From: Candidatus Bipolaricaulota bacterium
GTDB taxonomy: Bacteria > Patescibacteriota > Patescibacteriia > UBA11705 > DATKZF01
Assembly: GCA_035528115.1 (NCBI GenBank)
Contig: DATKZF010000003.1
Span: 423,089-487,088 of the forward strand
Direction of reading: 5' to 3'
Length of the DNA stretch: 64,000 bases
Shown: positions 6,061 to 64,000 of the stretch, in pieces
Layout of the letters: each line of letters begins with the position of its first letter
Numbering within the stretch: the stretch's first letter is position 1
Notes under the pieces: model-generated
What the model was told of the DNA's origin: nothing
The model's input: only the letters and a program-made list of their open reading frames with translations
Databases searched by the model: none
Made by a program: the position numbers and the translations under genes

Positions 6061-6062
6061 AT

Positions 6063-6150
6063 ATACAAGATTACAGATTTGTGTACAGATTATACGAGAT
6101 AATTTCCAATCTGTATGATCTTGTATGTAAATCTCGTAATCTTGTAACTT
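6063..6150. promoter_or_regulatory. TACRAGAT word array (4 forward then 4 reverse-complement copies) immediately upstream of hup
   Basis: tacaagat, tacagat, gtacagat, tacgagat followed by atctgta, atcttgta, atctcgta, atcttgta; ends 9 nt before the hup ATG. Confidence 0.45.
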
Positions 6151-15284: not shown

Positions 15285-15372
15285 AGATTACAAGATTACG
15301 AGATTTGCATACGAGATTATACAGATTAACCCGATCTCGTACAATCTGTACACCAATCTGTAATCTCGTAAA
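15285..15372. promoter_or_regulatory. TACRAGAT word array (4 forward then 4 reverse copies) upstream of tsaD
   Basis: tacaagat, tacgagat, tacgagat, tacagat then atctcgta, atctgta, atctgta, atctcgta; ends 9 nt before the tsaD ATG. Confidence 0.45.
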
Positions 15373-15380
15373 TCCAATTT

Positions 15381-17912: not shown

Positions 17913-19655
17913 TTAATCGCTGACTCTAAACACTTCTTCGATCGAAGTGATTCCATCCGCGGCTTTGAGCAAGCCGTCTTGAACCATGGTGATCATGCCT
18001 TGTTTGACGCCGAGTTCTTGAATGGAATATTCGGAGGCTTTTTCTTCCAAAATCAATTTTTCGATATCGGGATTCATGATTAATATTTCATAAATGCCGA
18101 GCCTGCCTTTATATTTCATGTTGTTGCACTCCGGGCACCCCTTGCCTCGATAAAATTTCAATTTGTTTAAATCCTTCGGCTTTTCCGGATTGGAGTCGGG
18201 TATAGCTTCCAATATTTTTTTAACTTTATCCAGAGTTTTTGCGTCAGGCTCGTATTCTTCTTTGCAGGCCTCGCAGATTTTTCTGGTTAAGCGTTGGCCG
18301 ATAATGGCGTTCAATGCCGGCGCCAGCAAAAATCCTTTGGAGCCGAGCGCCAAAAACCTGGGAATGGCGCCGGCCGCGCTATTGGTGTGAATGGTTGATA
18401 AAAGTAGATGGCCGGTTAAGGCCGCGTTGATGGCGATATCCGACGTTTCCAAATCTCTGATTTCGCCGATCATGATAATGTCAGGATCTTGCCTCATTAA
18501 TGATCTTAAGCCCTTGGCAAAATTGTAGCCCTTGGATGAATCCACCTGACTTTGGTTGATTCCTTCCAATTGATATTCGATCGGATCTTCCAAGGTGGCT
18601 ATTTTTACGTCTTGTTTATTCAGTTTATTCAAAATTGCGTAAAGCGTGGTGGTTTTACCCGAACCGGTCGGACCGGTGGTGATAATCATACCATTGGGAC
18701 GCGCCACTTCGATTTTTAATTTTTCATAGGCCTGGCCTCGCACGCCCAAATCATCAAAATTCAGACTGGTGGCGCTCGTGCGGAGCAATCTCATCACTAC
18801 GCTCTCACCATATTGCACGGGCAAAAATGAAGCGCGAACATCTATTTTTTCATCTTCGGTATCAATGCGAAACCGCCCGTCTTGAGGTTGATTGGTAATA
18901 TTGAGTTTTACTTTGGCCAAGAGTTTCAATCTGGAAATGACTTTCGGCCAATCTTCCTTTTTCAGTAAGGCGACATCATGCAATATACCATCAAGGCGGT
19001 ATCTGACTTTGATTTGCTTTTCTTCGGCTTCGACGTGAATATCCGAAGTGCCGGCTTGCAGGGCGGCGGCCACGATCAAGGCGACCATTTCCGTGGCATT
19101 GGTTTGTTCAATAACTTTTTGCAATTGAGTGAAATCCGTAAAGCCTTTTGAAAATTTGTTTAATTCTTCAGCTGATATTTCCACTCCCTTGGCGGAGGGT
19201 TTGATCTTTGGAATGCGTTTGTACATTTCCATGGCCGCGTCAAAGCCTTCTTGAGTGGATTGATATATTTCAACGTTGGCTTTTCGCCTTTCAGCTATTT
19301 GAAAAGACATTTCTTTGACTTTTTCATCTTGCGGACGGGGTGAAGCCAGTCTGATCTCATTGCCGATTTCCAAAAACACGAGCGCTTGCCGTTCCAGCGC
19401 TTGTTCTTCGGGAATAATGGACAGAGCTTCCGTGCTGATCGGAAAATTCATTAAATCAATGAACTGGATGCCTGCTGACATGGCTTGTTTTTCCACTTCT
19501 TCTTTTTTTTCCTTGCCGCGGATGGTTTTCATTTTTTGTTGAAATTTGGCTTGCGCCTCGTCTGTACCATCGTCCTTTTGGGAAGCTGATGACGATGATC
19601 CCAATACTGACGGATCCTTGAGCAAATCTTCAATTGATTGAGCTCCATTGGCCAT
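17913..19655 (-). CDS. pilB: Type IV pilus / type II secretion assembly ATPase (PilB/GspE family)
   Basis: 580 aa; N-terminal GSPII-like domain, Walker A GPTGSGKTTT, Asp box, His box, tetracysteine motif CPECNNMKYKGR. Confidence 0.85.
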   Translation of the reverse strand: MANGAQSIEDLLKDPSVLGSSSSASQKDDGTDEAQAKFQQKMKTIRGKEKKEEVEKQAMSAGIQFIDLMNFPISTEALSIIPEEQALERQALVFLEIGNEIRLASPRPQDEKVKEMSFQIAERRKANVEIYQSTQEGFDAAMEMYKRIPKIKPSAKGVEISAEELNKFSKGFTDFTQLQKVIEQTNATEMVALIVAAALQAGTSDIHVEAEEKQIKVRYRLDGILHDVALLKKEDWPKVISRLKLLAKVKLNITNQPQDGRFRIDTEDEKIDVRASFLPVQYGESVVMRLLRTSATSLNFDDLGVRGQAYEKLKIEVARPNGMIITTGPTGSGKTTTLYAILNKLNKQDVKIATLEDPIEYQLEGINQSQVDSSKGYNFAKGLRSLMRQDPDIIMIGEIRDLETSDIAINAALTGHLLLSTIHTNSAAGAIPRFLALGSKGFLLAPALNAIIGQRLTRKICEACKEEYEPDAKTLDKVKKILEAIPDSNPEKPKDLNKLKFYRGKGCPECNNMKYKGRLGIYEILIMNPDIEKLILEEKASEYSIQELGVKQGMITMVQDGLLKAADGITSIEEVFRVSD

Positions 19656-33829: not shown

Positions 33830-34001
33830 TCGTTACAAATTTACGAATTTCGTACACCTGCCTGCCGGCAGGCAGGAATATTACAAATGGTTACGAATTA
33901 TTTTCAGCACGGATTTGTTATGAACGTTTTCTAATTTGTACCATTATTATGATATTGTACTATCCTGTATGCGAATCTCGTACATCTCGTAACCAATAAT
34001 T

Positions 34002-41084: not shown

Positions 41085-41150
41085 AAACCGTCACCGCTGC
41101 CTGCCGGCAGAATTTCTCGGGAATGACAGACAGGTGATGGCTTTTTGCTT
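41085..41150. repeat. Composite palindromic terminator element (family member)
   Basis: aaaaaaaccgtcaccgCTGCCTGCCGGCAGaatttctcGGGAATGACAGACAGGTGatggctttttg. Confidence 0.6.
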
Positions 41151-41227: not shown

Positions 41228-42367
41228 ATGAGAATAGAACCAAATGTTTCCACAATTTACGAAAATAAATTCCCTCAAAATTTTGTTAATGATGTTAACG
41301 GCTGGGCTTTTTCCCAAAATGAAATGAAAGATAATTTTGGAAAGCTTTTAACATTAGATATTGATTTTGGAAGTTTTTGTAATCTTAATTGCCCACATTG
41401 TTTTAGAAAAAACAATAATGTTGATTTTGGCAAAAACAAGATAATTGATTACGACAACATAGTGAATATTGTCAAAGAGGGCAAAAAATTAGGGTTGAAA
41501 TCTGTTAAATTTCTCGGGGCCGGTGAACCTTTTCAAGAAAAAAGATTTTTGGAATTTTTGAGAGAACTAAAAAAATTGGATATTATCCCGCTTATTTTTA
41601 CAAAAGGGCATGTTATTGGCGACGATAATGAGGTTAAAAAATGGTATTCTCAATATGGCATTTCCACCGGTGAAGAATTAGTTGAAGAATTGAAGAAAGT
41701 AAACGCCAGCATTTTATTGGGTTTTAATTCCTTTGATACAGAAATTCAAGATAAAATGATAGGTAATATCAAGGGTTATACTTTGAAAAGAAATCGCGCT
41801 TTAGAACTTTTAGCTAAGGCGGGTTTTAATAAACACAACCCAACAAAACTTTGTCTGGCCGCGAACCCGATCACCAATGATAATTACGAGGAAATTTTTG
41901 AAATATACAAATGGGGCAGAATTAGAAATATGTATGTTATTGTTTGTCCGACAATGATAAGCGGCAGGTGTGCCAAAGAATTTGAGTGGCATAAAATTAC
42001 CCCCTCCCCAGAAGAATTGATTGAATTGTACGTAAAAATTTATAAATTCAATCTTGAAAAAGGTATAATTACAATGAAGCAGCTTGAGGATGAGGGCATT
42101 GCTCCTTATGCCGGCGGTCATCCATGCAATCAGGTCGCTTGCGGCATGTATGTGACATTAACAGGCAAGGTTTTGAGATGCCCGGGCGATGATAGAACTT
42201 TATTGGGTGATATTTGGAGCGAATCGTTGAGAGATATTTGGTTCAAGTCGGAAAATTATGAGAGAGCAGGAACATTTAATTGCGTTTGTCCGCCAAAGTT
42301 TGGGAAGTCCATCCCGTGTGATTTATTTACAAAAGTGATGACGCGATTAAAAAAGGACAATGATTAA
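41228..42367 (+). CDS. Radical SAM enzyme with C-terminal Cys-rich auxiliary-cluster (SPASM/twitch-like) domain
   Basis: CNLNCPHC (CxxxCxxC) at residues about 51-58, GAGEPF SAM-binding motif, then C-terminal CNQVACGMYVTLTGKVLRC (C-x4-C-x7-G-x4-C) and CVCPPKFGKSIPC. Confidence 0.75.
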   Translation: MRIEPNVSTIYENKFPQNFVNDVNGWAFSQNEMKDNFGKLLTLDIDFGSFCNLNCPHCFRKNNNVDFGKNKIIDYDNIVNIVKEGKKLGLKSVKFLGAGEPFQEKRFLEFLRELKKLDIIPLIFTKGHVIGDDNEVKKWYSQYGISTGEELVEELKKVNASILLGFNSFDTEIQDKMIGNIKGYTLKRNRALELLAKAGFNKHNPTKLCLAANPITNDNYEEIFEIYKWGRIRNMYVIVCPTMISGRCAKEFEWHKITPSPEELIELYVKIYKFNLEKGIITMKQLEDEGIAPYAGGHPCNQVACGMYVTLTGKVLRCPGDDRTLLGDIWSESLRDIWFKSENYERAGTFNCVCPPKFGKSIPCDLFTKVMTRLKKDND

Positions 42368-42384: not shown

Positions 42385-42470
42385 AAAAAAACCGCCACTG
42401 CTTTGAGATTCCCGCCTGCCTGCCGGCAGGCTTTCGCGGGAATGACAGACAGGTGTGGCGGTTTTTTATT
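42385..42470. repeat. Composite palindromic terminator element (best-preserved copy) between convergent rSAM gene and rny
   Basis: aaaaaaaccgccac tgctttgagattcccg CCTGCCTGCCGGCAGGC tttcgcGGGAATGACAGACAGGTG tggcggtttttt; outer stem accgccac/gtggcggt, inner stem ttcccgc/gcgggaa, central palindrome. Confidence 0.65.
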
Positions 42471-45516: not shown

Positions 45517-45729
45517 GTAAATGTCTCCTTTCAAATATAAGATGGTAATAGTTTAGCAGATTTTTAGGGGGTGTCAAGAAGGGCTGTTTTGAGGCAAAGG
45601 AGGTAGCTTGTAGCTTGTTAGCTTATTAGGTGAAATTAAAGCATAAAGCCACCTACAAGCTCACTCCAAATATTTACTTTCTTGAAAAAATATGATAAAT
45701 TAAACCCAGTTAATTCACTCAAAGATTTT

Positions 45730-50605: not shown

Positions 50606-50921
50606 TAAGAATTTCTTCGATTTCCCGCGCCTTTTTTTCCGTTTTTTCGAAAACAAAACGCAATTTGGGGATTTTTCGAAACCTTGTTCCCTTGGCCAGC
50701 CATTTTTTAATTTCCCCGCTTCTTAAAATGAGGAATTTTTTGGCTTCATTTTCCTTGGAGTCCGGCAAAACGCTGAAATGGATTTTTGCGCTTTCCAGGT
50801 CGGGGGAACTGTCAACATTAGCAATGGTAATCAAAAAGTCAAGCGGGGCGTCAAGGCGCCTGGAGATGATTTCCGCGATTTCTTGGCTTAAAAGACTGTC
50901 CAATTTTTCTTTTCGATGCAT
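50556..50921 (-). CDS. rbfA: Ribosome-binding factor A
   Basis: 121 aa; KH-like RbfA signature ISRRLDAPLDFLITIANVDSSPDLESAKIHFSV. Confidence 0.8.
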   Translation of the reverse strand: MHRKEKLDSLLSQEIAEIISRRLDAPLDFLITIANVDSSPDLESAKIHFSVLPDSKENEAKKFLILRSGEIKKWLAKGTRFRKIPKLRFVFEKTEKKAREIEEILNEIKDENTGKENFGQD

Positions 50922-51055
50922 ATTTTCAGGGGTTGGTTAATATCGTTGATTTATAATAGCATTATTTCATATAAAGATAAAGGCGGGTTTTTTTTAGGTT
51001 GTTAGGTTTTTAGGGAGGTAGGTTCTTAGTATCTTGTTGGCCTTTCTAATAACCT

Positions 51056-51340
51056 AAAAACCTACAAGCTACCACCGCCTATTGCCTCTCCGGCCACCCA
51101 TCGTTGTCATCTCGACCCCTCGACTTCGCTCGGGGCATGCCGTAGTGGAGAGATCCCTTTTTGTAATCAATGAGGGATTTCTCCATTCCGCCCTTCGGGG
51201 CTCCCTGCCTACCCTGCCTGCCGGCAGGCAGGCGGCAGGCAGGCGGGAATCCACAAAGCAGCGGTAGAATCATAAGCGGCGGCTTAAATCCACCTAATAA
51301 GCTAATAAGCTACAAGCTACTACGCCTATTGCCTCTCCTC
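51056..51340. mobile_element. MITE-like non-coding insert (about 215 bp) flanked by about 30-bp direct repeats
   Basis: Direct repeats ctacaagctaccaccgcctattgcctctcc (51060-51090) and ctacaagctactacgcctattgcctctcc (51310-51340). The intervening sequence contains the reverse copy of the 2111-2170 unit (ccatcgttgtcatctcgacccctcgacttcgctcggggcatgccgtagtggagagatc) and ccctgcctgccggcaggcaggcggcaggcagg. Confidence 0.5.
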
Positions 51341-51364
51341 ATCGCCCATGATAAGTTTATATAT

Positions 51365-52669
51365 ATGAAGTCTCTAATAAAAAAATTCATTCCCAAAAGC
51401 GTTTTATCGCTTTACCACAAATTTTTGGCGATTGTGGCGCGTTTTGCGTTCGGCAATCCTTCTGAAAAAATGATTGTCATCGGCGTGACCGGCACGAACG
51501 GCAAGTCATCGACCGTAAAATTGATCGCCAAGGCCCTGGCGAGCGAAGGCGCCAAAGTCGGTTACACCTCCACTTCGGAATTTCAAATCGGCGACAAAGA
51601 ATGGCTCAACAAAACGAAAATGACCATGCTCGGCCGTTTTCAATTGCAAAAACTTTTGAAAAAAATGGTTGACGCGGGTTGCCGATACGCGGTGGTGGAA
51701 GTTTCTTCGCAAGGCGTGGAGCAATTTCGCCATTTTGGCATTAATTTCGATTACGCTATTTTTACGAATTTAACTCCGGAGCACATCGAAGCTCATGGAG
51801 GTTTTGAAAATTACAAAAAAGCCAAAGGCAAATTTTTCAAATTCCTGACTTTGCGGCCGCGAAAGAAAATTAACGGTCAAGAAATCAAAAAAGTCATGGT
51901 CGTCAATCGAGACGACGAGCACTCCGATTATTTCCTGTCTTTTCCGGCTGACAAAAAATTGATTTTCAGCGCCCAAGACAAATTAAGCGACGTTTTTGCG
52001 GAAAATATTAAAGTCTCGACTTTGGGCACCTCGTTTTCCGTTAAAGGCCTTGAAATAAATTTGCGTTTGCTGGGCAAGTTCAATGTTTACAACAGTTTGC
52101 CCGCGATCGCCATCGGTTTGAACGAAGGACTTGATTTGGAAAAAATAAAAGCCGCGCTCGAGGCCGCGAAAGTCATTCCCGGACGCATGGAATTGATAGA
52201 TGAGGGTCAGCCGTTTTCGGTCATTGTCGATTACGCGCCCGAGCCGTACAGCTTGGCGAAATTATATGAGACGCTTGATTTGATGCAAAAAAATAAATTG
52301 ATTCACGTCTTGGGTTCGTGCGGGGGCGGACGCGATGTGGCCCGTCGGCCGATTTTGGGCAAGATGGCCGGCGAAAAGGCGGACATTGTCATTGTCACCA
52401 ATGAAGATCCGTACGATGATGATCCTCAAAAAATAATTGATGAAGTGGCGGCCGGCGCGATCGGGGTTGGGAAAAAATTGAATGAAAATCTTTTTAAGAT
52501 ATTGGACAGAAAAGAAGCCATTGCCAAGGCCATGAATTTGGCCGGCGCCGGGGATTTGGTGGTTTTGACCGGCAAGGGTTCGGAGCAGGCGATTGTGGTG
52601 AAGAACAATAAGAAGATGCCGTGGGATGAGAGGGAGGCGGCGAGGGAGGTTTTGAGGAGGCGGTGTTAA
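51365..52669 (+). CDS. Mur ligase family protein (MurE/MurF-like UDP-N-acetylmuramoyl-peptide ligase)
   Basis: VIGVTGTNGKSST P-loop, DYAIFTNLTPEHIEAHGGFENYKKAKGKFF, C-terminal Mur_ligase_C. ATG 51365 preferred over the track start 51170, which reads through the MITE-like element. Confidence 0.8.
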   Translation: MKSLIKKFIPKSVLSLYHKFLAIVARFAFGNPSEKMIVIGVTGTNGKSSTVKLIAKALASEGAKVGYTSTSEFQIGDKEWLNKTKMTMLGRFQLQKLLKKMVDAGCRYAVVEVSSQGVEQFRHFGINFDYAIFTNLTPEHIEAHGGFENYKKAKGKFFKFLTLRPRKKINGQEIKKVMVVNRDDEHSDYFLSFPADKKLIFSAQDKLSDVFAENIKVSTLGTSFSVKGLEINLRLLGKFNVYNSLPAIAIGLNEGLDLEKIKAALEAAKVIPGRMELIDEGQPFSVIVDYAPEPYSLAKLYETLDLMQKNKLIHVLGSCGGGRDVARRPILGKMAGEKADIVIVTNEDPYDDDPQKIIDEVAAGAIGVGKKLNENLFKILDRKEAIAKAMNLAGAGDLVVLTGKGSEQAIVVKNNKKMPWDEREAAREVLRRRC

Positions 52670-52688
52670 TTTGCATTGATTCATAAAA

Positions 52689-54839
52689 ATGTTAAATTCA
52701 AAACCAAAACCAAAAATGAATATTTTAATCTATTCAGTATATGGTTTGACAATTTTTATCAGCGCTTTTTTGCTTTTTCAAATCCAGCCACTCATCAGCA
52801 AACACATTTTGCCTTGGTTTGGCGGCGTCGCTTCTGTCTGGACGATTTGCATGCTTTTTTTTCAGGCAATACTGTTTCTGGGATATTTGTATGCTCATTT
52901 AATCACGAAATACTTATCAAATAAAAAACAAATAACGGTTCACGTTGCGTTATTAATCATTGCCGCCATTTCATTGTCAATTCTGCCGGAAGCGATATGG
53001 AAACCGACTGTCGGCGACAACCCTGTATTTCTCATCCTGCTTTTATTAAGTGCGTCCGTGGCCTTACCCGCCATTATCCTTTCTTCAACTTCTCCCCTGC
53101 TCCAAAGCTGGTTTAGCAAACAAAACATTGAAAAGTCCCCTTATAAATTATACGCGATATCAAACGCCGGATCTCTACTCGCGCTTTTGAGCTTCCCTTT
53201 TTTATTTGAGCCTTTAATGCCTATAAGCGCTCAAGCAAACTTTTGGATAGTCGGATTCATTCTGTTCGTAGTTTTATGTCTATTCTCGGGTTTGTTTTTA
53301 TTTAGGAAGAAAAAAATAATAGTTGAAAAAGTCATTTCTATCCGAAATACTGAAAAGCCGACAATAAAAATGAAATTGTACTGGCTGATTCTGGCAACAT
53401 CCACTTCTATTTTGCTTTTAGCCGTTACTGAGAAAATTTCACATGATATTTCCGTGATCCCTTTTCTCTGGGTGGCTACGCTTAGCTTGTATTTAATAAC
53501 CTTTGTTATTGCTTTTTCAAGAGCCGAGAATGAAAAGCGGCGCAATAATTTATTCCCAAATTTTTTAATTTTGTGCGTTATATGCCTGTTCCTCTTTATT
53601 GGACTTAATCATCTTTTTTCGCATCTAATCACGTATTTGTTCATTTTATTTTTATTTTGCCTTGCTTGCAATCACGAATTGGTTAGATTAAAACCTGTCT
53701 CTGATTATTTAACCTCATTTTATTTGTTTATCGCGGCGGGTGGCATTGCGGGAGGCATTTTTGCCGGCATTATTGCTCCTTTAATTTTTAATACCTATGC
53801 GGAACTCCCTCTAATAATTGTTGTTTGTGTGATTATCACGTTAATTGTTATTTTAAAAGAGGCAAGCTGGCATTGGAAAATAGTTAAAACCGGTTCAGGC
53901 CAAATACAATTCACTCTTTACAAATTTGATAAAAAATTTCAATTTTCAGGGAAACCGCAAAATTATATTTTTGTTGCATTAATAGTATTCTTTTCTATTT
54001 TTTGTTTCGGAGCCATGATTTATGATAATCCACAAGGCGATTCGAAGGTGCTGGAAAAATCCAGGAATTTTTATGGTATGTTAACGGTGGAGTCATTTAA
54101 TTCCTCCGGTGAAGGCTCGCCCAGGAGAGAGTTAATATCAGGCAATATTCTTCACGGCTCGCAATTGACTGAAGAATGTAAACAAAAAAATCCCACAAGC
54201 TATTATGGCCACCAAAGCGGTGTCGGCCTTCTTCTTGATCGCTATCAAGACAAGCCGAAGCGAGTCGGCATAATCGGGTTGGGCGCGGGCACCATTGCAG
54301 CTTATGGACAGAGCGGGGATTATTTCAAGTTTTATGAGATTAATCCCGAAGTTACAAACATCAGCAAAAAATATTTCACTTACGTGGAAAATTCAGAGGC
54401 TACTATAGATATTGCAGAGGGGGACGCACGGCTATCGCTTGAGCGAGAAAATTTTCAAAATTATAATATCTTAATCATTGATGCTTTTACCAATGATTCG
54501 ATTCCAGTTCATCTTTTAACTAAAGAAGCATTTGACATATATTTAAAACATCTTAATAATGACGGAGTGATTGCCTTGAATATTTCCAGCCTTTATATTG
54601 ATTTGACGCCGGTAGTTTTAAAACTGGCCGAATATAACCACCTCGATGCCGAGATTATTGCTTCAAATGGTGATATAGACCAAAATACCGCGACTGCCCT
54701 GTGGATTTTGCTAAGCAAGAATGAAAATTTGATTAAAAACTTGAATAACAGTTCCGATGATTTCGCTGAAAAAATAGATATCAGCGCTGCTGACCTATGG
54801 ACAGATGATTACAGCAATATTTTTAAATTGCTTAAGTAA
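52689..54839 (+). CDS. Polytopic membrane domain fused to spermidine-synthase-like (PABS) methyltransferase-fold domain
   Basis: About 12 N-terminal TM helices; C-terminal VGIIGLGAGTIAAYG...YEINPEV...IIDAFTNDSIPVHLLTKEAFDIYLKHLNNDGVIALN matches aminopropyltransferase family architecture. Confidence 0.55.
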   Translation: MLNSKPKPKMNILIYSVYGLTIFISAFLLFQIQPLISKHILPWFGGVASVWTICMLFFQAILFLGYLYAHLITKYLSNKKQITVHVALLIIAAISLSILPEAIWKPTVGDNPVFLILLLLSASVALPAIILSSTSPLLQSWFSKQNIEKSPYKLYAISNAGSLLALLSFPFLFEPLMPISAQANFWIVGFILFVVLCLFSGLFLFRKKKIIVEKVISIRNTEKPTIKMKLYWLILATSTSILLLAVTEKISHDISVIPFLWVATLSLYLITFVIAFSRAENEKRRNNLFPNFLILCVICLFLFIGLNHLFSHLITYLFILFLFCLACNHELVRLKPVSDYLTSFYLFIAAGGIAGGIFAGIIAPLIFNTYAELPLIIVVCVIITLIVILKEASWHWKIVKTGSGQIQFTLYKFDKKFQFSGKPQNYIFVALIVFFSIFCFGAMIYDNPQGDSKVLEKSRNFYGMLTVESFNSSGEGSPRRELISGNILHGSQLTEECKQKNPTSYYGHQSGVGLLLDRYQDKPKRVGIIGLGAGTIAAYGQSGDYFKFYEINPEVTNISKKYFTYVENSEATIDIAEGDARLSLERENFQNYNILIIDAFTNDSIPVHLLTKEAFDIYLKHLNNDGVIALNISSLYIDLTPVVLKLAEYNHLDAEIIASNGDIDQNTATALWILLSKNENLIKNLNNSSDDFAEKIDISAADLWTDDYSNIFKLLK

Positions 54840-54885
54840 TGGACTTGTTAAAATTGATAAGTACCGGATATAGCGACAAGATAAC

Positions 54886-54962
54886 TACGCAAAGAAGAAC
54901 AATAAAAAGATGCCGTGGGATGAGAGGGAGGTGGCGAGGGAGTGTTTGAGGAGGCGGGGGAA
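54886..54962 (+). repeat. Degenerate copy 2 of the Mur-ligase 3' terminus (att-like remnant)
   Basis: aagaacaataaaaagatgccgtgggatgagagggaggtggcgagggagtgtttgaggaggcggggg versus native 52600-52665. Confidence 0.7.
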
Positions 54963-55032
54963 TAATTAATTAGGGAGTTAAATATAAAAGGTAGTTGGCC
55001 AAAAGGTTCACTTAAACATTAACCAATTATGT

Positions 55033-55434
55033 ATGAAAATATTTAAAAATATATTTGGCTTAATATTGTTGGCAATAAGCGGATTTTATGCGATGTTTGC
55101 TGTAAGTTTTATACGCGAGATCCCTCTTTTTAATAGCGCATTTGGCAGCTTACTATGGCTGATTGCTATACTGGGTTTATTGGGGGTAACCGGATTATGG
55201 ACAACAATTTTGTTAAGAATCTTTCAAAAGGATGTCAAAAAACCAATCACAAAATATCTTATTTACATTGGAATCGTCGCAGCCCTAACAGTCTCTGTGA
55301 TAGGTTTTTCATTTTTTGGATTAAAAGAGTCAATCATCGCTTTAGGAAATTTTATGCTTAGTTGGGGATTATTGTTGTTTTCAATAGCTGTTATTGTTTA
55401 TTTGAAATTTGAACCATTTCGTAAGAAAAAATAA
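55033..55434 (+). CDS. Hypothetical small membrane protein (4 TM)
   Basis: 133 aa, strongly hydrophobic. Confidence 0.35.
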   Translation: MKIFKNIFGLILLAISGFYAMFAVSFIREIPLFNSAFGSLLWLIAILGLLGVTGLWTTILLRIFQKDVKKPITKYLIYIGIVAALTVSVIGFSFFGLKESIIALGNFMLSWGLLLFSIAVIVYLKFEPFRKKK

Positions 55435-55615
55435 ACGTATGGTCTAACAGCGCCTATGGTAAATGTCGTTTTCTCGCCTTCGGTGGACGATGAGCCGCAA
55501 ACGTTATCTCAATCACAGAACGCGCGATTTCGCGCGTTTTTTGGTTGATTTTTGGGGGTGGATGTGGTATGTTGGGGGTAATTAAATGGAAAATATGCCT
55601 CTATACTAATCGATA

Positions 55616-55715
55616 ATGGAAGGCGCGGAGCAGGCGATTGTGGTTAAGAATAATAAAAAGATGCCGTGGGATGAGAGGGAGGCGGCGAGGGAGGTTTTGA
55701 GGAAAATCAACAAAT
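55616..55715 (+). repeat. Degenerate copy 3 of the Mur-ligase 3' terminus (about 85 bp, att-like remnant)
   Basis: ggagcaggcgattgtggttaagaataataaaaagatgccgtgggatgagagggaggcggcgagggaggttttgagg versus native 52572-52660. Confidence 0.7.
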
Positions 55716-55769
55716 AGTAACCTATCAAAAAAGGTCAAAATATATCAGCCGAAGTTATAAGTTAATAAT

Positions 55770-58631
55770 ATGACAGGAAATTTTAAAATAGAAATCAGAC
55801 ATTTAGTTAAAAATTTTAAAGAGCAAGATGGTCAGAGACGGTCTGAAGAAGATATCCAAACCAGCTTTACTATTAAATTAATGGAGGTTCTCGGCTGGGA
55901 CAGCTCTCATTGGGCAATAAATACCGGTCAGGACGTAAAAACAGGCAAAAAGCCTGATATTGTTTTAAAATCAGGATCTTCAAAATTGATAGTTATCGAA
56001 TCAAAAGATGCCAAGAAAAAAGATATGCTTGACGGCTCATACGGCAACAAAACTTTTAAGCAGCAACTATTTAATTATTGCAAAGCGGAAGGGGTGGCCT
56101 GGGGTATTTTGACTAATTTTATTGAATGGCGATTGTACAGTGTTCATCATAGTCGATTATACAAAGAGAAGAAATATGCTTTTTACGATTTGTTATGGCC
56201 TAACGCAGATAAGAGCAGTTACGTGGATTTATTGTCCGATGAGGGGATGCAATTTCTAAATTTAATTTCAAAAGAAAATTTAATTAAAAAGAATGGAATT
56301 ATTGATCCTGATCCGATATATTATCCTGAACAGCTAGATATAGAGCAAGAAAAAATAAAAAAAGAATTTTTCAGCAAGATAAAAAATTGGCGCGAGAATT
56401 TACGAAAATTTATAAATAAAAATTATTCTAAATATACCCTTGAGGAAGTTGATTTAATGGCGCAGAAGATATTAGATCGAATGATTTTTATTGATATTTG
56501 TCATGATAAGGGCATTGTTTATGAAAATCATCTTCGTGCAATATTATCTTCAAAATTGCCCAAGTACGAAGAGTTGAAGGAGAAATTTAAGGTAATGAAC
56601 GAGAAGTTCAACACTGAGCTTTTTGCTCAAAATACTATTGATGAAATTAAAATTAGCAACGATGTAATAATCCCTATTATAGAAGAATTAGACGAAATCG
56701 ATTTTAGCAAACTTAGTGTTCACATTATTGGGGAAGTATATGAAAATTATCTGGGAGAGATAGCCAAGGGGAACGTGAAGAAAGAAGATGTAATGAAGGC
56801 AAAACAAAAAAATAAACGAAAATCGCAAGGTATATACTATACTCCTGATTACATTGTTGATTATATTGTCAAAAAGACAGTGGGTGAATTGTTGAAAAAA
56901 GCTAAAACAAAAGAGGATATAGAGAAAATTAGAGTTTTGGACCCTGCTTGCGGTTCGGGTTCGTTTTTAATTCGTGCTTTTGATGAGTTTTTTGAGGCAT
57001 ACAAGAGAGTAATGAAGGAAGGTGGGCTTTTAGGTTTTGAAATAAAGAAAAAAATATTGCAAAACAACCTTTTCGGCGTTGATTTAGATCCCAAAGCTGT
57101 GGAAATCGCCAAGCTAAACCTAATGATTAAGGCGCTTGAAGGCGCGACGCCAAACGAATTAAGAGGCGATCATTTGCTACCTAACTTGAATCTAAATATT
57201 CGTTGTGGCAATTCCTTGATTGGAGGGGAGAAGTTAAAAGAAAAGGAAAATAATTTGAATCTGTTTGACAAGTTTGACGATGAAATAAAAAAATTAATTG
57301 ATTTTAAGGAGCGGTTTCGTAAATCCATCTCTAATGATGAAAAAAAAGAAATTCTGAACGAAATTAATATATTTGAGGGATACATTAATAAAGAAGTAAA
57401 TGATAGCCTGTATAAATATTTCAAGAATTTGAATAGAATTAGGCCATTCAATTACACAATCGCTTTTTGTGAAATATTCAAAGACGGTGGATTTGATGCG
57501 GTGATTGGAAATCCGCCATATATTAGACCACATAGAATTGACACAAGTATAAAAGGATATTTATGGGAAAATTATTATTCATTCAAGGCAAAATCCGATA
57601 TCTACGTATGTTTCATTGAAAATGCAATACAACTCACGAAAAAAGGCGGACTAATTTCATATATAGTTTCAAACACATGGCTATCATTAGAGAGTTTCGA
57701 AAATCTACGAACTTTCATCCTAAACAATACAAAAATAAAAATGTTGATTAACCCTCCAGCAAAGGTTTTTAGTGGAGCGCAAGTGTCGACGATTGTTTTT
57801 GTTTTTGAAAAAGATGAATCTAAGGGAAATAAAATAATTGTAGGGGGATTATCTCAAAACGCATTCAAACTCGAGGGTGCAATAAAACAAACGCTGTTCA
57901 ATAAAACACACAAAAAAGTTTTCGATTTATCTTTACTAGATAAACAGGTTTTTTCAATAAAGGTTGCAACGACCCCGTTAAAAAAAGTCGCGAAATTTTA
58001 CTATGGAATAAAAACCGGAGATGATGAGAAATTTTTGACTTTCAAACCCAAAGATAAAAATAATTATAAACAACTTTTAAGAAGAAGTGATTTTAATCGA
58101 TATCTAATAGATTACAAAGGTGAGTATGTTTGGTACGCACCAGAATTAATGAAAGAAAATAAAGCCACCGCTCGGCCAGGAGAACCAAAAAGATTCGATG
58201 AAACAAAAATTATTATAACTGACATTGCAAAAAAAATAATTGCGACATTGGATTTACGACATTATTATATTAAAGATGCCTTAATCCTTCATCAAATAAA
58301 AAATGGTTATGATTTAAGGTATTTATTAGGTGTTATAAATTCAAAATTATTAAATTTTATCTACACCAAGACATTTAGAAATTTGAGCGTAGCTAAAAAC
58401 GCTTTTATGCAATTGCCAATTAAGATAATAGAGATTAGTGAAGAAAAAGCTTTGTATAACACAATTGTTCGCTTGGTAGACCAATTGCTTAAATTAAATA
58501 AGACTACAGAATCCCGCGAAATAAACAAAACAAAAATCCAGGCGCTGGATTATGAAATTGATAAGATGGTGTATAAGCTTTATGGGTTGGGGGAGTCTGA
58601 GATAAAAACAATTGAACAAGCTGTAAAATAA
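55770..58631 (+). CDS. Type IIG restriction-modification enzyme (MmeI/Eco57I-like: N-terminal PD-ExK nuclease, gamma-class N6-adenine methyltransferase, C-terminal TRD)
   Basis: 953 aa; nuclease motif KPDIVL...IVIESKD; MTase motif I VLDPACGSGSFLI and motif IV IGNPPYI. Confidence 0.8.
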   Translation: MTGNFKIEIRHLVKNFKEQDGQRRSEEDIQTSFTIKLMEVLGWDSSHWAINTGQDVKTGKKPDIVLKSGSSKLIVIESKDAKKKDMLDGSYGNKTFKQQLFNYCKAEGVAWGILTNFIEWRLYSVHHSRLYKEKKYAFYDLLWPNADKSSYVDLLSDEGMQFLNLISKENLIKKNGIIDPDPIYYPEQLDIEQEKIKKEFFSKIKNWRENLRKFINKNYSKYTLEEVDLMAQKILDRMIFIDICHDKGIVYENHLRAILSSKLPKYEELKEKFKVMNEKFNTELFAQNTIDEIKISNDVIIPIIEELDEIDFSKLSVHIIGEVYENYLGEIAKGNVKKEDVMKAKQKNKRKSQGIYYTPDYIVDYIVKKTVGELLKKAKTKEDIEKIRVLDPACGSGSFLIRAFDEFFEAYKRVMKEGGLLGFEIKKKILQNNLFGVDLDPKAVEIAKLNLMIKALEGATPNELRGDHLLPNLNLNIRCGNSLIGGEKLKEKENNLNLFDKFDDEIKKLIDFKERFRKSISNDEKKEILNEINIFEGYINKEVNDSLYKYFKNLNRIRPFNYTIAFCEIFKDGGFDAVIGNPPYIRPHRIDTSIKGYLWENYYSFKAKSDIYVCFIENAIQLTKKGGLISYIVSNTWLSLESFENLRTFILNNTKIKMLINPPAKVFSGAQVSTIVFVFEKDESKGNKIIVGGLSQNAFKLEGAIKQTLFNKTHKKVFDLSLLDKQVFSIKVATTPLKKVAKFYYGIKTGDDEKFLTFKPKDKNNYKQLLRRSDFNRYLIDYKGEYVWYAPELMKENKATARPGEPKRFDETKIIITDIAKKIIATLDLRHYYIKDALILHQIKNGYDLRYLLGVINSKLLNFIYTKTFRNLSVAKNAFMQLPIKIIEISEEKALYNTIVRLVDQLLKLNKTTESREINKTKIQALDYEIDKMVYKLYGLGESEIKTIEQAVK

Positions 58632-58634
58632 TTT

Positions 58635-59369
58635 ATGAAATGTAAATTATGTGGGGAAGAGAAAGTATTAGTTAATGCACATATCATACCAAAAGTTTTC
58701 TATAATTACATCTATAAAAATACCAATGACCATTCTTTAGCGCTTGCATCAAGTAAAAACAATGTTCGGAAAAAGAGGGTCCCAAAAGGCATATATGATA
58801 AAAAGATCCTTTGTAAAGAATGTGATAATAGCTTGGGGGTTTATGATGATTATGCAAGCCGATTATTGTTGTGTGAATTTGATCCCGGAAATTTTATAGC
58901 TGACGGACAGGGCTATAAAATTGATAAGTATGCTTTTGATAAATTATCATTCTTTTTTTTATCTGTTCTGTGGCGTGCATCAATCACTACTCACGAATTA
59001 TTTAGACGAGTTTCCCTCGGGCCATACGAAACTAAAATAAAGGATATCTTAACAATGGAAAACGTTGATAAACTAAATGAATTTAATATTTTAATTTTAC
59101 GATATCTTGATTTCGCGGGTCAAAATTCCATTTTAGAACCATTCTTGACAAGAATAGATAAAATCAGATTTAATGTAATTTTTTTGGGTGGAGGATATAA
59201 ATTTTTTTTACGAGTAGATAAACAAAGATTGCCTGCACAAAACAAATTGAATATTTTGTTCATGAGACAAGATAAACCATTATTAATTTTAGTTGAAAAA
59301 GATATAAAAAAATGCAGCGATTTCCATGTGTTGAAGGCAATAACGTGGAACAATCTGCAAAAAAAGTAG
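58635..59369 (+). CDS. Hypothetical protein with N-terminal HNH-like zinc-finger motif, immediately downstream of the RM gene
   Basis: CKLCGEEKVLVNAHIIPK...N...CKECDN resembles CxxC...HIIP...N...CxxC of HNH nucleases; remaining about 170 aa unassigned. Starts 4 nt after the RM gene stop. Confidence 0.35.
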   Translation: MKCKLCGEEKVLVNAHIIPKVFYNYIYKNTNDHSLALASSKNNVRKKRVPKGIYDKKILCKECDNSLGVYDDYASRLLLCEFDPGNFIADGQGYKIDKYAFDKLSFFFLSVLWRASITTHELFRRVSLGPYETKIKDILTMENVDKLNEFNILILRYLDFAGQNSILEPFLTRIDKIRFNVIFLGGGYKFFLRVDKQRLPAQNKLNILFMRQDKPLLILVEKDIKKCSDFHVLKAITWNNLQKK

Positions 59370-59441
59370 CAATAGTAAAGTAACTATGTAATCAAGGCAT
59401 TATGATGCTAATATCTTCGCTATAAATAACAAAATAATAAT

Positions 59442-60113
59442 ATGGAAAAACAAATTTTACAATATGAGGACGACTTGAAAAGACATTTTCAAGAACAACT
59501 AAATTTTTTGGAAAAATCGGCCACTGAATTTGATAATGGCGATGAATCAGAAGCAAAGCGAATGGCAACACATCTACGTACATTACTTCATAATACTGTA
59601 AAATCTACATCGCTTTTGCAGCATTTGAATTTATTACATACAAAATTTTTTGATTCCTCATTCAATTATGATCCTGGAATTACTTCTTTTTGCAGTTTAA
59701 TTGTTATTGATGTTACTAATTTAAAATACCAACCATTTTTAGATGACTCCTCTGAGAGTAATAAGAATATATCAATAGATTTTGAAAATTGGTGGAGTAA
59801 AAATCCTGTTTTTATTGATTTAAATAAAAATGAATTTACACGAAAGGATATAATTTTATTTTTAACCAACAAAGATGGGGGCGCTCATGTGGATACTATG
59901 GCAGAAGAAAAATTTGTTAAATTCTCTCGCCAAAATTCTATCGGATGGAATTTCGTTAAAAATGGAAATGAGATTAAGGTTAGGGGAGCTGACATAGCCG
60001 CCATAAGACAAATAACCCATGAGGTTTTGAAAACTTTCATCCATAATTATACAAAAACAAGGGATGTCCATGGAGTTGAATTTGCATCTATATCAATAGA
60101 GGAAGTTGAATAA
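59442..60113 (+). CDS. Hypothetical protein (AT-rich island gene)
   Basis: 223 aa; no family recognised. Confidence 0.3.
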   Translation: MEKQILQYEDDLKRHFQEQLNFLEKSATEFDNGDESEAKRMATHLRTLLHNTVKSTSLLQHLNLLHTKFFDSSFNYDPGITSFCSLIVIDVTNLKYQPFLDDSSESNKNISIDFENWWSKNPVFIDLNKNEFTRKDIILFLTNKDGGAHVDTMAEEKFVKFSRQNSIGWNFVKNGNEIKVRGADIAAIRQITHEVLKTFIHNYTKTRDVHGVEFASISIEEVE

Positions 60114-60127
60114 TAATTAAAATTGTA

Positions 60128-60343
60128 TTGATTATAAAAAAGGTAAATTTTATGAATAAGTATTATACATGTATCATTTGCGGCTCATTAGTTTTTTTTG
60201 TTGCACAACAAGTTGCATTTATGTGTGAGGAATGTTTTTTAGAAAAACATGTACATTTGCCAGAACAATATTACGCAACGAATTTTTATAACCTGCAAAC
60301 AGCTGGACTATCTGCGACGTTATCGGCAAATATTGACAGGTAA
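60128..60343 (+). CDS. Small Cys4 zinc-ribbon-like protein
   Basis: 71 aa; CIICGS...CEEC pairs. Confidence 0.25.
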   Translation: MIIKKVNFMNKYYTCIICGSLVFFVAQQVAFMCEECFLEKHVHLPEQYYATNFYNLQTAGLSATLSANIDR

Positions 60344-60375
60344 ATCATTCAAGGAGATGCACAATATTTTTGTTA

Positions 60376-60462
60376 TTTATCGCCTAAAATGGTCGGTTTG
60401 AATCCTATGTATTAGTTTGCACTAGCTAAAAAACCTCAATGTTTGCCGCCAAAAACATCCAC
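60376..60462 (+). repeat. 87-bp direct repeat, copy A (upstream of rhuM-fic)
   Basis: ttatttatcgcctaaaatggtcggtttgaatcctatgtattagtttgcactagctaaaaaacctcaatgtttgccgccaaaaacat, followed by terminator-like ccccgccccgcgcgggagattttttt (60463-60487). Confidence 0.7.
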
Positions 60463-60567
60463 CCCGCCCCGCGCGGGAGATTTTTTTAAAATGCCGGCCG
60501 CGATTATTTATTTGACACATTCCCCAAAATCACGAAAAATGGAAGTATTGGCCGGTTAAAATTATTT

Positions 60568-61557
60568 ATGAAACAAAAAAATCATTCAAAGGGCGAAATA
60601 ATGATTTATACAACCTCGAAAAACGAGGTGGAGTTGAAGGTTCATTTTAAAAATGAATCTGTTTGGCTTGGACAAAGTGAAATTGCGTTGCTGTTTGGCA
60701 GAGAACGATCGGTTATCACCAAGCATATCAATAAGATTTTTTCTGATAAAGAAGTTGATAAAGCAAGCAATGTGCAAAAAATGCACATTGCAAATTCTGA
60801 TAAACCCGTGGAATTTTACAGCCTAGATGTAATTTTAGCCGTGGGTTACCGCGCGAATTCACCCCGCGCCATCCATTTTCGCCATTGGGCCACGAAAATC
60901 TTGAAACAATATTTAATCAAGGGTTACGCCATAAACGAAAAACGTCTGCTGGAAGCTCAAAATAAATTCAAAGAACTTCAAGAAACGGTTTTATTTTTGC
61001 AAAAACATTCAAAAAAGGAATTGTTGAAAGGACAAGAAGCGGAAATTTTAAATTTACTTGCCGATTACTCAAAAACACTTTCATTGCTTGGACAATACGA
61101 TAACGGAAAACTGGCGGAAAAGAAAGGCAAAAGGACGAAATTTATTCTGCGATACAACGATTGCTCCAATATAGCGGTTAAACTTAAAGACGGACTTATC
61201 GCCAAAAAAGAGGCCGGCGACTTGTTCGGGCATGAACGGGGAGGAAGCTTTGAAGGTATTATCTCCGGGTTGTATCAGTCTTTCGCGAGAAAGGAGCTGT
61301 ATCCCGCGATTGAAGACAAAGCGTCTCATTTGCTTTACTTAATGATCAAAGACCATCCCTTTTTTGACGGCAATAAAAGAATCGCTTCGTTTTTATTTGT
61401 TTATTTTCTGGACAGGTCAAATTATCTTTTCAAAAAATCCGGCGAGCGAAAAATCAATGACAACGCGTTGACGGCGCTGGCGCTGCTTATTGCCGAAAGC
61501 GCTCCAAAAGATAAAGAGACAATGATTAAAATTATTAAAAATTTAATTGGCGAATAA
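60568..61557 (+). CDS. RhuM-like N-terminal domain fused to Fic/Doc-family domain
   Basis: N-terminal KGEIMIYTTSKNEVELKVHFKNESVWLGQSEIALLFGRERSVITKHI (RhuM virulence-protein family); C-terminal HPFFDGNKRIASFLF matches the Fic core motif HxFx(D/E)GNxR. Confidence 0.75.
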   Translation: MKQKNHSKGEIMIYTTSKNEVELKVHFKNESVWLGQSEIALLFGRERSVITKHINKIFSDKEVDKASNVQKMHIANSDKPVEFYSLDVILAVGYRANSPRAIHFRHWATKILKQYLIKGYAINEKRLLEAQNKFKELQETVLFLQKHSKKELLKGQEAEILNLLADYSKTLSLLGQYDNGKLAEKKGKRTKFILRYNDCSNIAVKLKDGLIAKKEAGDLFGHERGGSFEGIISGLYQSFARKELYPAIEDKASHLLYLMIKDHPFFDGNKRIASFLFVYFLDRSNYLFKKSGERKINDNALTALALLIAESAPKDKETMIKIIKNLIGE

Positions 61558-61579
61558 TTATATATAATATGCCTCTTTT

Positions 61580-61607
61580 CTCCCGCCTCCGCGCGGGAGT
61601 TTTTTTT
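61580..61607 (+). terminator. Rho-independent terminator after rhuM-fic
   Basis: ctcccgcctccgcgcgggagtttttttt. Confidence 0.6.
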
Positions 61608-61681
61608 GTTATTTACCGCCTAAAATGCTCGATTTGAATCCAAAGTATTAGTTTGCATTAGCTAAAAAACCTCAATACCTC
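61595..61681 (+). repeat. 87-bp direct repeat, copy B (downstream of rhuM-fic, upstream of rpoB promoter)
   Basis: ttatttaccgcctaaaatgctcgatttgaatccaaagtattagtttgcattagctaaaaaacctcaatacctcccgccaaaaacat; about 85% identical to copy A. Confidence 0.7.
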
Positions 61682-61790
61682 CCGCCAAAAACATTTGTCA
61701 AATTTTTTGTGGATAAGGTGGGAGTTGGCGATCGGAGGAGGGCGGAAATTAGTCTAAATTTAGCTAAATGCAGTGGCCTGCGCCTTGCCC

Positions 61791-61819
61791 TTGACAATAC
61801 CCGCGGGGATTGATATTAT
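61791..61819 (+). promoter_or_regulatory. Candidate rpoB promoter (TTGACA-17 bp-TATTAT)
   Basis: TTGACA 61791-61796, TATTAT 61814-61819; about 130-nt leader to the rpoB ATG. Confidence 0.45.
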
Positions 61820-61952
61820 ATGAATACGTTTAAACCCGCCTGGAGCCTTATTTTAGGCAAAAAAGTAATCTTATTATGGCGGAGAGCCACTCATATACAA
61901 CAATTAAATTTTAAATTAACAAACTCGTTCCATGGGGAAGGGGAATATTTTT

Positions 61953-64000
61953 ATGTCTAAAAAACTAAATACCATGTCAGGCCGAAAGTTCTTCACCGCT
62001 CCTTACAGGTATGAAATGCCGGATTTGATTGACATTCAGAAAAATTCTTACAACTGGTTTGTTCGAGAAGGACTCAAAGAGTTGTTCGGCGAATTGTCTC
62101 CCATCCAAGATGTTTCCGGCAAACAGCTTGAACTTTCCTTTGAAGATTATTATTTGGACGAGCCCAAGTTCGACGAGACCACCAGCAGAGATAAAAATAT
62201 CACCTATGAAGCGCCGTTGAGAGTTAAGGTCAAACTGGAAAATAAAAAGAACGGCACCAAAGAAGATCAGGAAATATTTTTGGGCGATTTTCCGATGATG
62301 ACCGATCGAGGAACTTTCGTCATCAATGGAATTGAGCGCGCCATAGTTTCGCAGATTATCAGATCATCGGGCGTGTTTTTTACTTCCAATTTTCTGCGCG
62401 AAAAAAATAAAACATTTTACGGAGCGAAAATAATTCCGAACAGAGGCGCTTGGCTGGAATTCGAGACTGACACCAATAACGTGATTTGGGTCAAGATCGA
62501 TCGAAAGAGAAAAGTGGCGGCCACGGCATTGCTTCGAGCTTTCGGCGTGGGGACCGATCAAGAGATTTTGAATTTGACCAAAGACGTCGAAACTCATCCT
62601 GATATCAATTACACCCAATCGACGATCGACAAAGACGCGTCTCGAACGATCGAAGAAGGCTTGATCGAAGTTTATAAAAGAATAAGGCCGGGCGATCTGG
62701 CCACTGCCGATAACGCCAAGTCGCTTATCTACGCCATGTTTTTCAATTTCAGCAGATATGATTTCGGCAAAGTCGGTCGATATAAATTAAATCAAAGATT
62801 CAACGAGCAATTGGAAAACATTGATGTCAATAGAATTTTGCGCATCGAAGACGTGGCTAACGTGATTAAAGAAATCATCAGATTGAATGTTACCCAGCAA
62901 GAAGCCGATGATATCGATCATTTGGGCAATCGAAGAATCAGGGCCATTGGCGAATTGATTCAAAATAAATTCAGAATAGGTTTGGCTCGCATGGAAAGAA
63001 TCGTCAAAGACAGAATGACCACCATGGATCCGACCATTATGACCCCGGCGAAATTAATCAACGCGCGGCCGGTCATCGGCGTGGTCAAGGAATTTTTCAT
63101 GTCTTCGCAATTGTCGCAATTCATGGATCAGACCAATCCCTTGTCCGAGCTGGAGCATAAGAGAAGAATCTCGGCCATGGGACCGGGCGGACTCTCTCGA
63201 GAACGCGCGGGCTTTGAAGTTCGCGACGTTCACACCACTCACTATGGCAGAATCTGTCCGATCGCCACGCCTGAAGGTCCGAACATCGGACTGGTGGGCC
63301 ATTTGGCCAGCTATGCCAAGGTTAATGAATACGGATTTATTGAAACGCCGTTTTTTAAAGTTGAACATATTATAAAGAAGGATTTGAAAGACCCGGAAAC
63401 CAAAGCCGTATTATTCAAAAAAGGACAGTCCGTGCTGGGCGCGGAATTGGAAAAAATAAGTTTGGATCCGGATGAAATTCTGGAAAAAGTGGAAAGCAGA
63501 TTAAGCGATGAAGTCATTTACTTGAACGCTTTGAAGGAAGAAAAAGCCATTACCACTTCGGCCACCATACCGGTCGATGACAAAGGCGTGTTTTTGAAAA
63601 AAAGAGCGAATGTCCGAAAATACGGACATCCGGAAGTGTCATATACTTACTTAATAGATTACGTGGACGTGGCGCCCAATCAGATCGTCAGCGTGGCCAC
63701 CTCATTGATTCCTTTCTTGGAACACGATGACGCGGTGCGCGCTTTGATGGGCACGAACATGCAACGTCAAGCGGTGCCCACGGTGGTGCCGCAGTCTCCG
63801 GTGGTTGGCACGGGAGTCGAAGAAAAAGCCGCTCGCGATTCCGGCCATTTGGCCATTGCCGAAAAAGACGGCACAGTCGTGGGTCTCGATTCATCGAAAA
63901 TAGAAGTTTTGGAAAAGGACGGCAACATCAGACTTTATCGATTGAAAAAATTCGTCTGTTCCAACGCTTCGACTTCAATCAATCAGCGCCCCATCATCAA
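61953..64000 (+). CDS. rpoB: DNA-directed RNA polymerase subunit beta, N-terminal about 680 codons (continues beyond window)
   Basis: MSKKLNTMSGRKFFTAPYRYEMPDLIDIQKNSYNWF...GDFPMMTDRGTFVINGIERAIVSQIIRSSGVFF...FFKVEHIIKKDLKDPE...LIPFLEHDDAVRALMGTNMQRQAVP; open to the window end, hence absent from the ORF track. Confidence 0.95.
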   Translation, partial: MSKKLNTMSGRKFFTAPYRYEMPDLIDIQKNSYNWFVREGLKELFGELSPIQDVSGKQLELSFEDYYLDEPKFDETTSRDKNITYEAPLRVKVKLENKKNGTKEDQEIFLGDFPMMTDRGTFVINGIERAIVSQIIRSSGVFFTSNFLREKNKTFYGAKIIPNRGAWLEFETDTNNVIWVKIDRKRKVAATALLRAFGVGTDQEILNLTKDVETHPDINYTQSTIDKDASRTIEEGLIEVYKRIRPGDLATADNAKSLIYAMFFNFSRYDFGKVGRYKLNQRFNEQLENIDVNRILRIEDVANVIKEIIRLNVTQQEADDIDHLGNRRIRAIGELIQNKFRIGLARMERIVKDRMTTMDPTIMTPAKLINARPVIGVVKEFFMSSQLSQFMDQTNPLSELEHKRRISAMGPGGLSRERAGFEVRDVHTTHYGRICPIATPEGPNIGLVGHLASYAKVNEYGFIETPFFKVEHIIKKDLKDPETKAVLFKKGQSVLGAELEKISLDPDEILEKVESRLSDEVIYLNALKEEKAITTSATIPVDDKGVFLKKRANVRKYGHPEVSYTYLIDYVDVAPNQIVSVATSLIPFLEHDDAVRALMGTNMQRQAVPTVVPQSPVVGTGVEEKAARDSGHLAIAEKDGTVVGLDSSKIEVLEKDGNIRLYRLKKFVCSNASTSINQRPII

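Follow-up and report, generated by a model that had tools for sequence, protein, structure and literature searches.

The stretch of DNA examined here, referred to as the window, comprises 64,000 nt (positions 423,089 to 487,088 of contig DATKZF010000003.1, GenBank assembly GCA_035528115.1). In it, the genes murE and rpoB are separated by an islet of approximately 9.0 kb, and the 3' terminal 64-82 nt of murE are found in three direct copies, of which c1 is the native gene end, while c2 and c3 are located inside the islet (Table 1). Downstream of murE, the islet consists of cassette A, with a single gene for a major facilitator superfamily (MFS)/spermidine synthase fusion protein, cassette B, with a single gene for a predicted membrane protein, a defence-type module including a type IIG restriction-modification gene, and a module with a RhuM/Fic-Doc gene. 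The GC contents of these modules are 0.37, 0.35, 0.31, and 0.39, respectively, whereas the remainder of the window has 0.44. The islet genes all run in the direction of murE and rpoB and are tightly packed, with non-coding gaps of at most 395 nt. The ligase preceding the islet is identified as MurE by its TIGR01085 score (344 bits; cut-off, 257), and it is of full length, since its homologues have 432-442 amino acids.

Table 1. Features of the murE-rpoB region (positions in nt of the window; the end of a reading frame is given as "stop").
Feature	Position	Strand	Description
murE	51365-52669	+	UDP-MurNAc-tripeptide synthetase, intact, 434 aa, ends ..EVLRRRC-stop; Pfam Mur_ligase_M, Mur_ligase_C; TIGR01085
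c1	52581-52669	+	resident murE terminus, attL-like
Cassette A (single gene)	52670-54893	+	bracketed by c1/c2; GC 0.37
Fused MFS/spermidine-synthase gene (cassette A)	52689-54839 (JGI start 52716)	+	NCBIfam NF037959
c2	54894-54969	+	displaced murE end, residues 413-433, tail ..ECLRRRGNN-stop
Cassette B (single gene)	54970-55618	+	bracketed by c2/c3; GC 0.35
133-aa predicted membrane-protein gene (cassette B)	55033-55434	+	
Terminator-like hairpin after cassette B gene	55522-55537		
c3	55619-55717	+	displaced murE end, residues 404-431, tail ..EVLRKINK-stop
Defence-type module	55718-60366	+	IIG gene and open reading frames of 244, 223, and 71 aa; GC 0.31
Type IIG restriction-modification gene	55770-58631	+	Pfam Eco57I, N6_Mtase, TaqI_C; PADLOC REase_MTase_IIG, 6e-90
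92-nt direct repeat pair	60367-60458, 61603-61694		89% identical, unrelated to murE; brackets the RhuM/Fic gene
RhuM/Fic-Doc gene	60568-61557	+	PADLOC candidate PDC-S23, 7e-116; module 60367-61694
Native spacer upstream of rpoB, right islet edge	61695-61952	+	conserved with relatives; rpoB start at 61953

The match of c2 to the murE end amounts to 93.8% identity over 64 aligned nt and that of c3 to 96.2% over 78 aligned nt (blastn E-values for the repeats of 1e-32 and 3e-23). The portion of c1 shared with c3 extends from 52581 to 52658, the one shared with c2 from 52600 to 52665, and a core of 56 nt (52603-52658) is common to all three copies. The 25-mer AAGATGCCGTGGGATGAGAGGGAGG occurs in each of them without mismatch and in none of 100 shuffled sequences, and c1 and c3 have a perfect tract of 46 nt in common. 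No other fragment of either murE or rpoB was found in the islet by blastn; the repeated part is limited to the C-terminal residues listed for c2 and c3. Each copy is in the murE frame up to a stop of its own, with RRRC, RRRGNN, and KINK as tails of c1, c2, and c3, respectively. The frame of c2 stops at 54969; c3 departs from the murE sequence after TTTGAGGA and reads on in frame to a TAG at 55715-55717, and it is annotated by JGI as an open reading frame (ORF) of 33 amino acids (55616-55717). A first-pass annotation of the window, made from the letters alone, had proposed that the ligase 3' end is present in three copies, and this is confirmed. Its statement that the third copy lacks a stop context does not hold, nor do the copies delimit three segments, as it had suggested; they delimit only two, because the sequence from 55718 onward has no fourth murE copy at its right. 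The restriction-modification and toxin genes, which it had counted as the third segment, are thus not delimited by murE copies, and the RhuM/Fic gene has repeats of another kind.

The differences between the copies are few. From c1 to c3 there are three changes (G>T, C>T, and G>A), none of which alters the encoded amino acid when read in frame with murE; p is about 0.007-0.011 under neutral decay of c3, given that some 19-23% of random changes would be synonymous. The left edge of c3 encodes G-A-E-Q, an allele found in relatives; the resident c1 encodes G-S-E-Q. The combination of synonymous-only differences with an allelic left edge indicates that at least one of c1 and c3 evolved as a functional murE end, either in a different lineage or on a separate molecule, and did not arise by in-place duplication and decay. 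The tail of c3 is rich in Lys, Asn, and Ile, like the tails of the relatives, and an Arg-rich extension is common to c1 and c2; these tails and alleles fit c3 as the original gene end, with c1 and c2 having been brought by related incoming DNAs, and c3 is probably the oldest terminus. Ordering the events by divergence, which the first-pass annotation had recommended, did not succeed, as 3 and 4 differences are too few; only c2, with two amino-acid-changing differences, can be named as the most altered copy. When a reconstructed c3-type C-terminus was used as query, the sole match was the c3 ORF itself.

The repeated block has a GC content of 0.58 and an unusual codon choice, with AGG for 4 of 5 Arg and GAG for 4 of 4 Glu residues; in 22 core genes of the window AGG makes up 9.5% of Arg and GAG 18% of Glu codons (joint p of about 4e-7 for the block). 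As all three copies have this foreign-looking composition, it cannot be assigned to either the host or an element. The block (52581-52665, and likewise c2 and c3) is also rich in G and in purines, the latter reaching 78%, and has two occurrences of GAGGGAGG spaced by 12 nt. A consensus sigma-70-like promoter was not found within any copy. Two further candidates were tried and rejected: a leftover, in front of c3, of the motif natively found upstream of rpoB, since 273 of 500 shuffles score as high, and a known RNA family, since Rfam returned only a sub-threshold chance match for 50800-62100.

In related genomes, the two genes flanking the islet are commonly neighbours. Of 80 species representatives, about 30 have murE and rpoB 160-600 nt apart, and in a relative with 70% identity (L084) the distance amounts to 398 nt, which conforms to the uninterrupted ligase-rpoB junction that the first-pass annotation had advised looking for; here the gap is 9283 nt. 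The comparison supports murE directly followed by rpoB as the presumed ancestral junction. On the rpoB side, the intergenic region of L084 aligns with 61689-61718 and 61809-61969 of the window, so that the native spacer resumes at about 61689-61695. The islet is most likely a composite, horizontally acquired insertion at a junction that normally measures 160-600 nt. The repeated murE end was seen in none of the 80 species representatives and in none of 13 closer relatives, and was therefore rejected as a clade-wide trait; a triplication devoid of cargo genes, which according to the first-pass annotation would have indicated a structural origin, is equally absent from these 93 loci. A 32-nt match in another relative (L068) is a low-complexity "tttgtaatttg" repeat and no gene end. 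The spacer as such is variable, with 2-4 small ORFs in L082 and L086 and inserts of 0.7-2.6 kb in 12 other species, but neither direct repeats at the flanks nor a second murE end occurs in any of the other spacers that are occupied. In L095, a 73%-identical relative, a gene for an IS200-like Y1 transposase (7293-7847; PF01797, 24.8 bits) is located 45 nt past the murE stop.

The nearest homologues of the cassette A protein are at most 55% identical and are found in other, conserved gene neighbourhoods, on which grounds they were rejected as evidence of mobility. In the defence-type module, the 244- and 223-amino acid ORFs match phage-associated families whose function is not known (matches in the module: phrog_19960/7075 and phrog_7805). 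The 92-nt copies around the RhuM/Fic gene have 19 nt as their longest perfect tract; just inside each of them lies a terminator hairpin (60462-60487 and 61580-61607), and the two hairpins are similar to each other. The right copy adjoins the conserved spacer upstream of rpoB, and among the loci fetched the 92-nt sequence is confined to this one.

The footprint is consistent with integration at a gene 3' end, replacement termini, and tandem accretion, as judged from the arrangement of the copies. Whether the repeats would be scars of a site-specific process of this kind is, in our judgement, evenly balanced. In the scenario we put forward, c3, with its KINK end, would have been the original terminus of murE. 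The first two modules would have entered by recombination of the resident murE terminus with a copy of that terminus on incoming, presumably circular DNA; in each event, murE would gain a new stop-proximal tail, and the prior terminus would be shifted downstream as a non-functional scar. Cassette B would have been acquired first, bringing the RRRGNN end, and cassette A later, bringing the present RRRC end. The catalyst would most likely be a site-specific recombinase that is no longer, or never was, encoded nearby, and the cassettes may be integrative elements that a streamlined genome has reduced to one gene each or, alternatively, may have been mobilised in trans. The part with the restriction-modification and RhuM/Fic genes would have joined by separate events, one of which left the 92-nt repeats. 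Of this scenario, we infer the recombinase, the circular form of the intermediate, and the sequence in which the events took place. A site-specific process is favoured because neither murE remnant extends beyond the last 90 nt of the 1305-nt gene (p of about 0.005 for both breakpoints if placed at random), and because the shared homology is short (64-82 nt), a length typical of att sites and poor for RecA.

Several observations weigh against such a process. The search for recombinase domains covered the islet ORFs, all window ORFs of at least 100 amino acids, and 10 kb further to the left, and in these 74 kb neither a tyrosine nor a serine recombinase was found, which confirms and extends the absence of an integrase from the window reported by the first-pass annotation; a decayed recombinase would have no room, because of the short non-coding gaps. 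The bracketed units hold one ORF each, in 2.2 kb and 0.65 kb with almost no spare DNA, and their cargo is of a non-mobile type. The copies c1-c3 do not have the dyad symmetry or hairpin usual for the core sites of recombinases, and in single-strand folding of both strands they did no better than shuffles (z-scores of -1.25 to +0.59). The repeat core was not found in viral collections, either as an exact 22-mer or by a peptide-based scan, and the islet as a whole gave no megablast match to phages or plasmids; an exact 22-mer scan of metagenome contigs was also empty, but this negative is weak, as the collection missed even the source contig. Neither an excised nor an empty or partial variant was seen among six assemblies, and none of the 93 related murE loci has a repeated gene end. 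The protein clusters are private to this genome, and the poor coverage of close strains weakens the negative result on mobility. Finally, one recombinase specific for murE cannot explain the RhuM/Fic repeats, because the 92-nt pair is unrelated to murE, and this pair favours a homology-driven over a sequence-specific process. Of the repeated site-specific integration claimed by the first-pass annotation, the hotspot, the replacement termini, and the accretion can thus be upheld; site-specificity was not demonstrated.

Such a homology-driven process could be a Campbell-type integration dependent on RecA, in which DNA of a related strain, taken up by natural transformation and circularised, would bring a gene beside a short stretch of the murE end or of the spacer and enter by a single crossover with the resident homologue, with no need for an integrase; the stretch of homology would thus come to flank the insert on both sides. 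We consider this route rather unlikely, without thinking it far-fetched. The window encodes recA (13631-14686) and a PilB-type ATPase (17913-19655), and the lack of an integrase in the 74 kb would be expected. The minimal pairing length of RecA is usually below 46 nt, so that the perfect tract shared by c1 and c3 would exceed it. Moreover, the repeats of the murE end and the 92-nt pair, although unrelated in sequence, would be covered by a single mechanism, which is the more economical explanation for the 92-nt pair, as this pair lies in a spacer with no gene to restore and yet has long homology. Homologies of 64-92 nt are, however, very inefficient substrates for RecA, the 92-nt pair offers a perfect tract of no more than 19 nt, and a bias towards long homology would be expected, whereas neither murE remnant reaches 90 nt and both terminate close to the end of the gene. 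A related genome with these genes beside murE, which might have served as donor, was not found among the loci compared.

An improbable alternative is that fragments made up of the murE end and a downstream gene were gained by larger duplication or illegitimate insertion and later trimmed by deletion, until nothing was left but what the expression of the downstream gene requires, such as a signal within the murE end. It would agree with the co-orientation and tight packing of the islet genes and with the position of each displaced copy upstream of the next gene, and streamlined genomes of the Candidate Phyla Radiation (CPR) delete DNA quickly. However, a sigma-70-like promoter is missing from all copies, and the Shine-Dalgarno-like GGAGG motifs are 29-75 nt away from the next start codons. 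There is no leftover murE sequence 5' of c2 or c3, two independent trimmings would have to end within 26 nt of each other, and the synonymous-only differences between c1 and c3 oppose duplication in place followed by decay.

Little credence is also given to the idea that this CPR bacterium might have a cassette system that resembles integrons and acts in trans, with the murE-end copies as its recombination sites. Units of one ORF with a purine-rich site of about 60 nt, identical to the end of an essential gene, would be inserted serially at that end, by a recombinase encoded elsewhere in the genome or by a homology-templated process without an integrase. Such a system predicts a strongly conserved 56-nt core of odd composition and the packing of one ORF per unit, as is observed.

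An artefact of assembly is unlikely, because all six contigs in which the exact murE or the 133-amino acid protein is encoded (from JGI, ENA, and NCBI) have the identical order. In the form considered, strain haplotypes of the murE-rpoB hotspot would have been concatenated via the shared murE end, and this prospect is very remote indeed: the source is a metagenome contig of 604 kb (JGI 3300031565, Ga0307379_10000002) and the repeats of 64-92 nt are shorter than typical large k-mers, but the six contigs include one of 50-200 kb as well as larger ones, the largest having 762 kb, non-murE sequence joined to the left edges of c2 and c3 would not occur in simple strain haplotypes, and the copies differ mutually and are therefore not collapsed repeats. 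Two known systems were rejected, a diversity-generating retroelement, as no reverse transcriptase was found in the window and the mismatches from c1 to c3 are not adenine-specific, and integron attC sites, as neither strand of any copy forms a hairpin.

Some observations on the surroundings were made in passing. This MurE and its close homologues of about 435 amino acids match the MurE models only from around position 60-95, and the clade enzyme appears to be devoid of the usual N-terminal domain. The closest murE relatives and the gene order all point to Patescibacteria (Falkowbacteria, Uhrbacteria, and Buchananbacteria-like), and the NCBI label of the genome, Candidatus Bipolaricaulota (proteins HUT22589-HUT22596), is probably wrong. 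On the other side of murE, the spacer to rbfA (50941-51364) is packed with repeats; 51046-51076 and 51284-51320 are inverted matches to 45599-45639, and 51103-51154 is an inverted copy of 2128-2179. The latter belongs to a region (2022-2142) in which three tandem units of 47 nt (AATTAGGAAAAGATCTCTCCGCTTCGG...) overlap a 52-nt element whose inverted copy is the one located 49 kb away, upstream of murE. A gene for an HD-domain protein occupies the rbfA-murE position in L082, L084, and L095 and is absent in L086. Palindromic repeats of one family (CCTGCCTGCCGGCAGGCAGG and motifs next to it) occur between genes at 41097-41136 and 42416-42455 and also at 33857, 35014, 42411, and 51213; the two 40-nt members named first are 93% identical and flank a radical SAM/SPASM gene of low GC content (41228-42367; 0.34). 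Paired inverted repeats of 40-49 nt with "tacaagattacagat"-type motifs, 86-93% complementary, are found at 6052-6147 and 15288-15382 and bracket a segment of 9.1 kb with hsp20, a vanW-like gene, clpP, ftsK, and recA.

If the scars were att sites, murE would be added to the protein genes that are used as integration targets, and the locus would constitute a rare, precisely bounded case of gene gain in a patescibacterial (CPR) genome of about 0.6-0.76 Mb. To our knowledge, the mobile elements of Patescibacteria are poorly characterized. One-gene units lacking a recombinase raise the question of whether streamlined genomes trim elements down to useful cargo or are able to acquire cassettes with no integrase dedicated to the task. 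Exact coordinates for searching reads for excision or for strain variants are available in the form of the 56-nt core and the murE-rpoB junction. Being based on one genome and an inferred mechanism, and concerning a phenomenon that is already known, the case is probably best regarded as a modest, new example.

Among known systems, the closest parallel is the integration of e14 and phage 21 into icd of Escherichia coli, where e14 leaves a 163-bp pseudo-icd' (PMC6379469). There as here, a replacement 3' end keeps the housekeeping gene intact with an altered terminus, the displaced end is retained as a short pseudo-fragment on the far side of the insert, and the differences between the resident and the displaced end are conservative, three out of three being synonymous in the present case. 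The murE locus has in common with this type the direct repeats that include the target 3' end, the intact target with an alternative terminus, and the empty site in relatives; an integrase was not found in the 74 kb, nor was evidence of mobility, a weak negative with few close strains at hand. In contrast to e14 and phage 21, which are multi-gene prophages with an integrase of their own, the units are single ORFs without an integrase in that range, and they are located at murE in a CPR bacterium.

A second parallel concerns tandem arrays. Arrays of integrative elements arise by re-use of regenerated att sites (PMC7192596), and in tycheposon arrays, which also contain degenerated remnants, partial tRNA copies serve as separators (bioRxiv 10.1101/2020.12.28.424599). 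As in the arrays known from the TIGER/Islander surveys and from the Prochlorococcus tycheposons, partial copies of the target lie between neighbouring units, and older elements are pushed inward. By definition, every element of those arrays has at least one integrase, as TIGER requires, and most of the arrays use tRNA or tmRNA genes, whereas units of 0.65 and 2.2 kb without even a fragment of an integrase are seen here. Integron arrays and clusters of attC sites lacking integron-integrases (CALINs) resemble the murE locus in their co-oriented, tight single-ORF units, in a recurring site of 60-100 nt, and in the absence of a recombinase inside. The integron integrase IntI, which is not required for a CALIN, was not found in the 74 kb; unlike attC sites, which are imperfect palindromes forming hairpins, the murE copies are a purine-rich gene terminus, and there are only two units. 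The locus is, lastly, comparable to variable hotspots between core genes, in that the contents of the murE-rpoB spacer differ among relatives and include defence genes in this genome; what sets it apart from the other occupied spacers compared at this junction is the presence of flanking direct repeats and of the repeated murE end.

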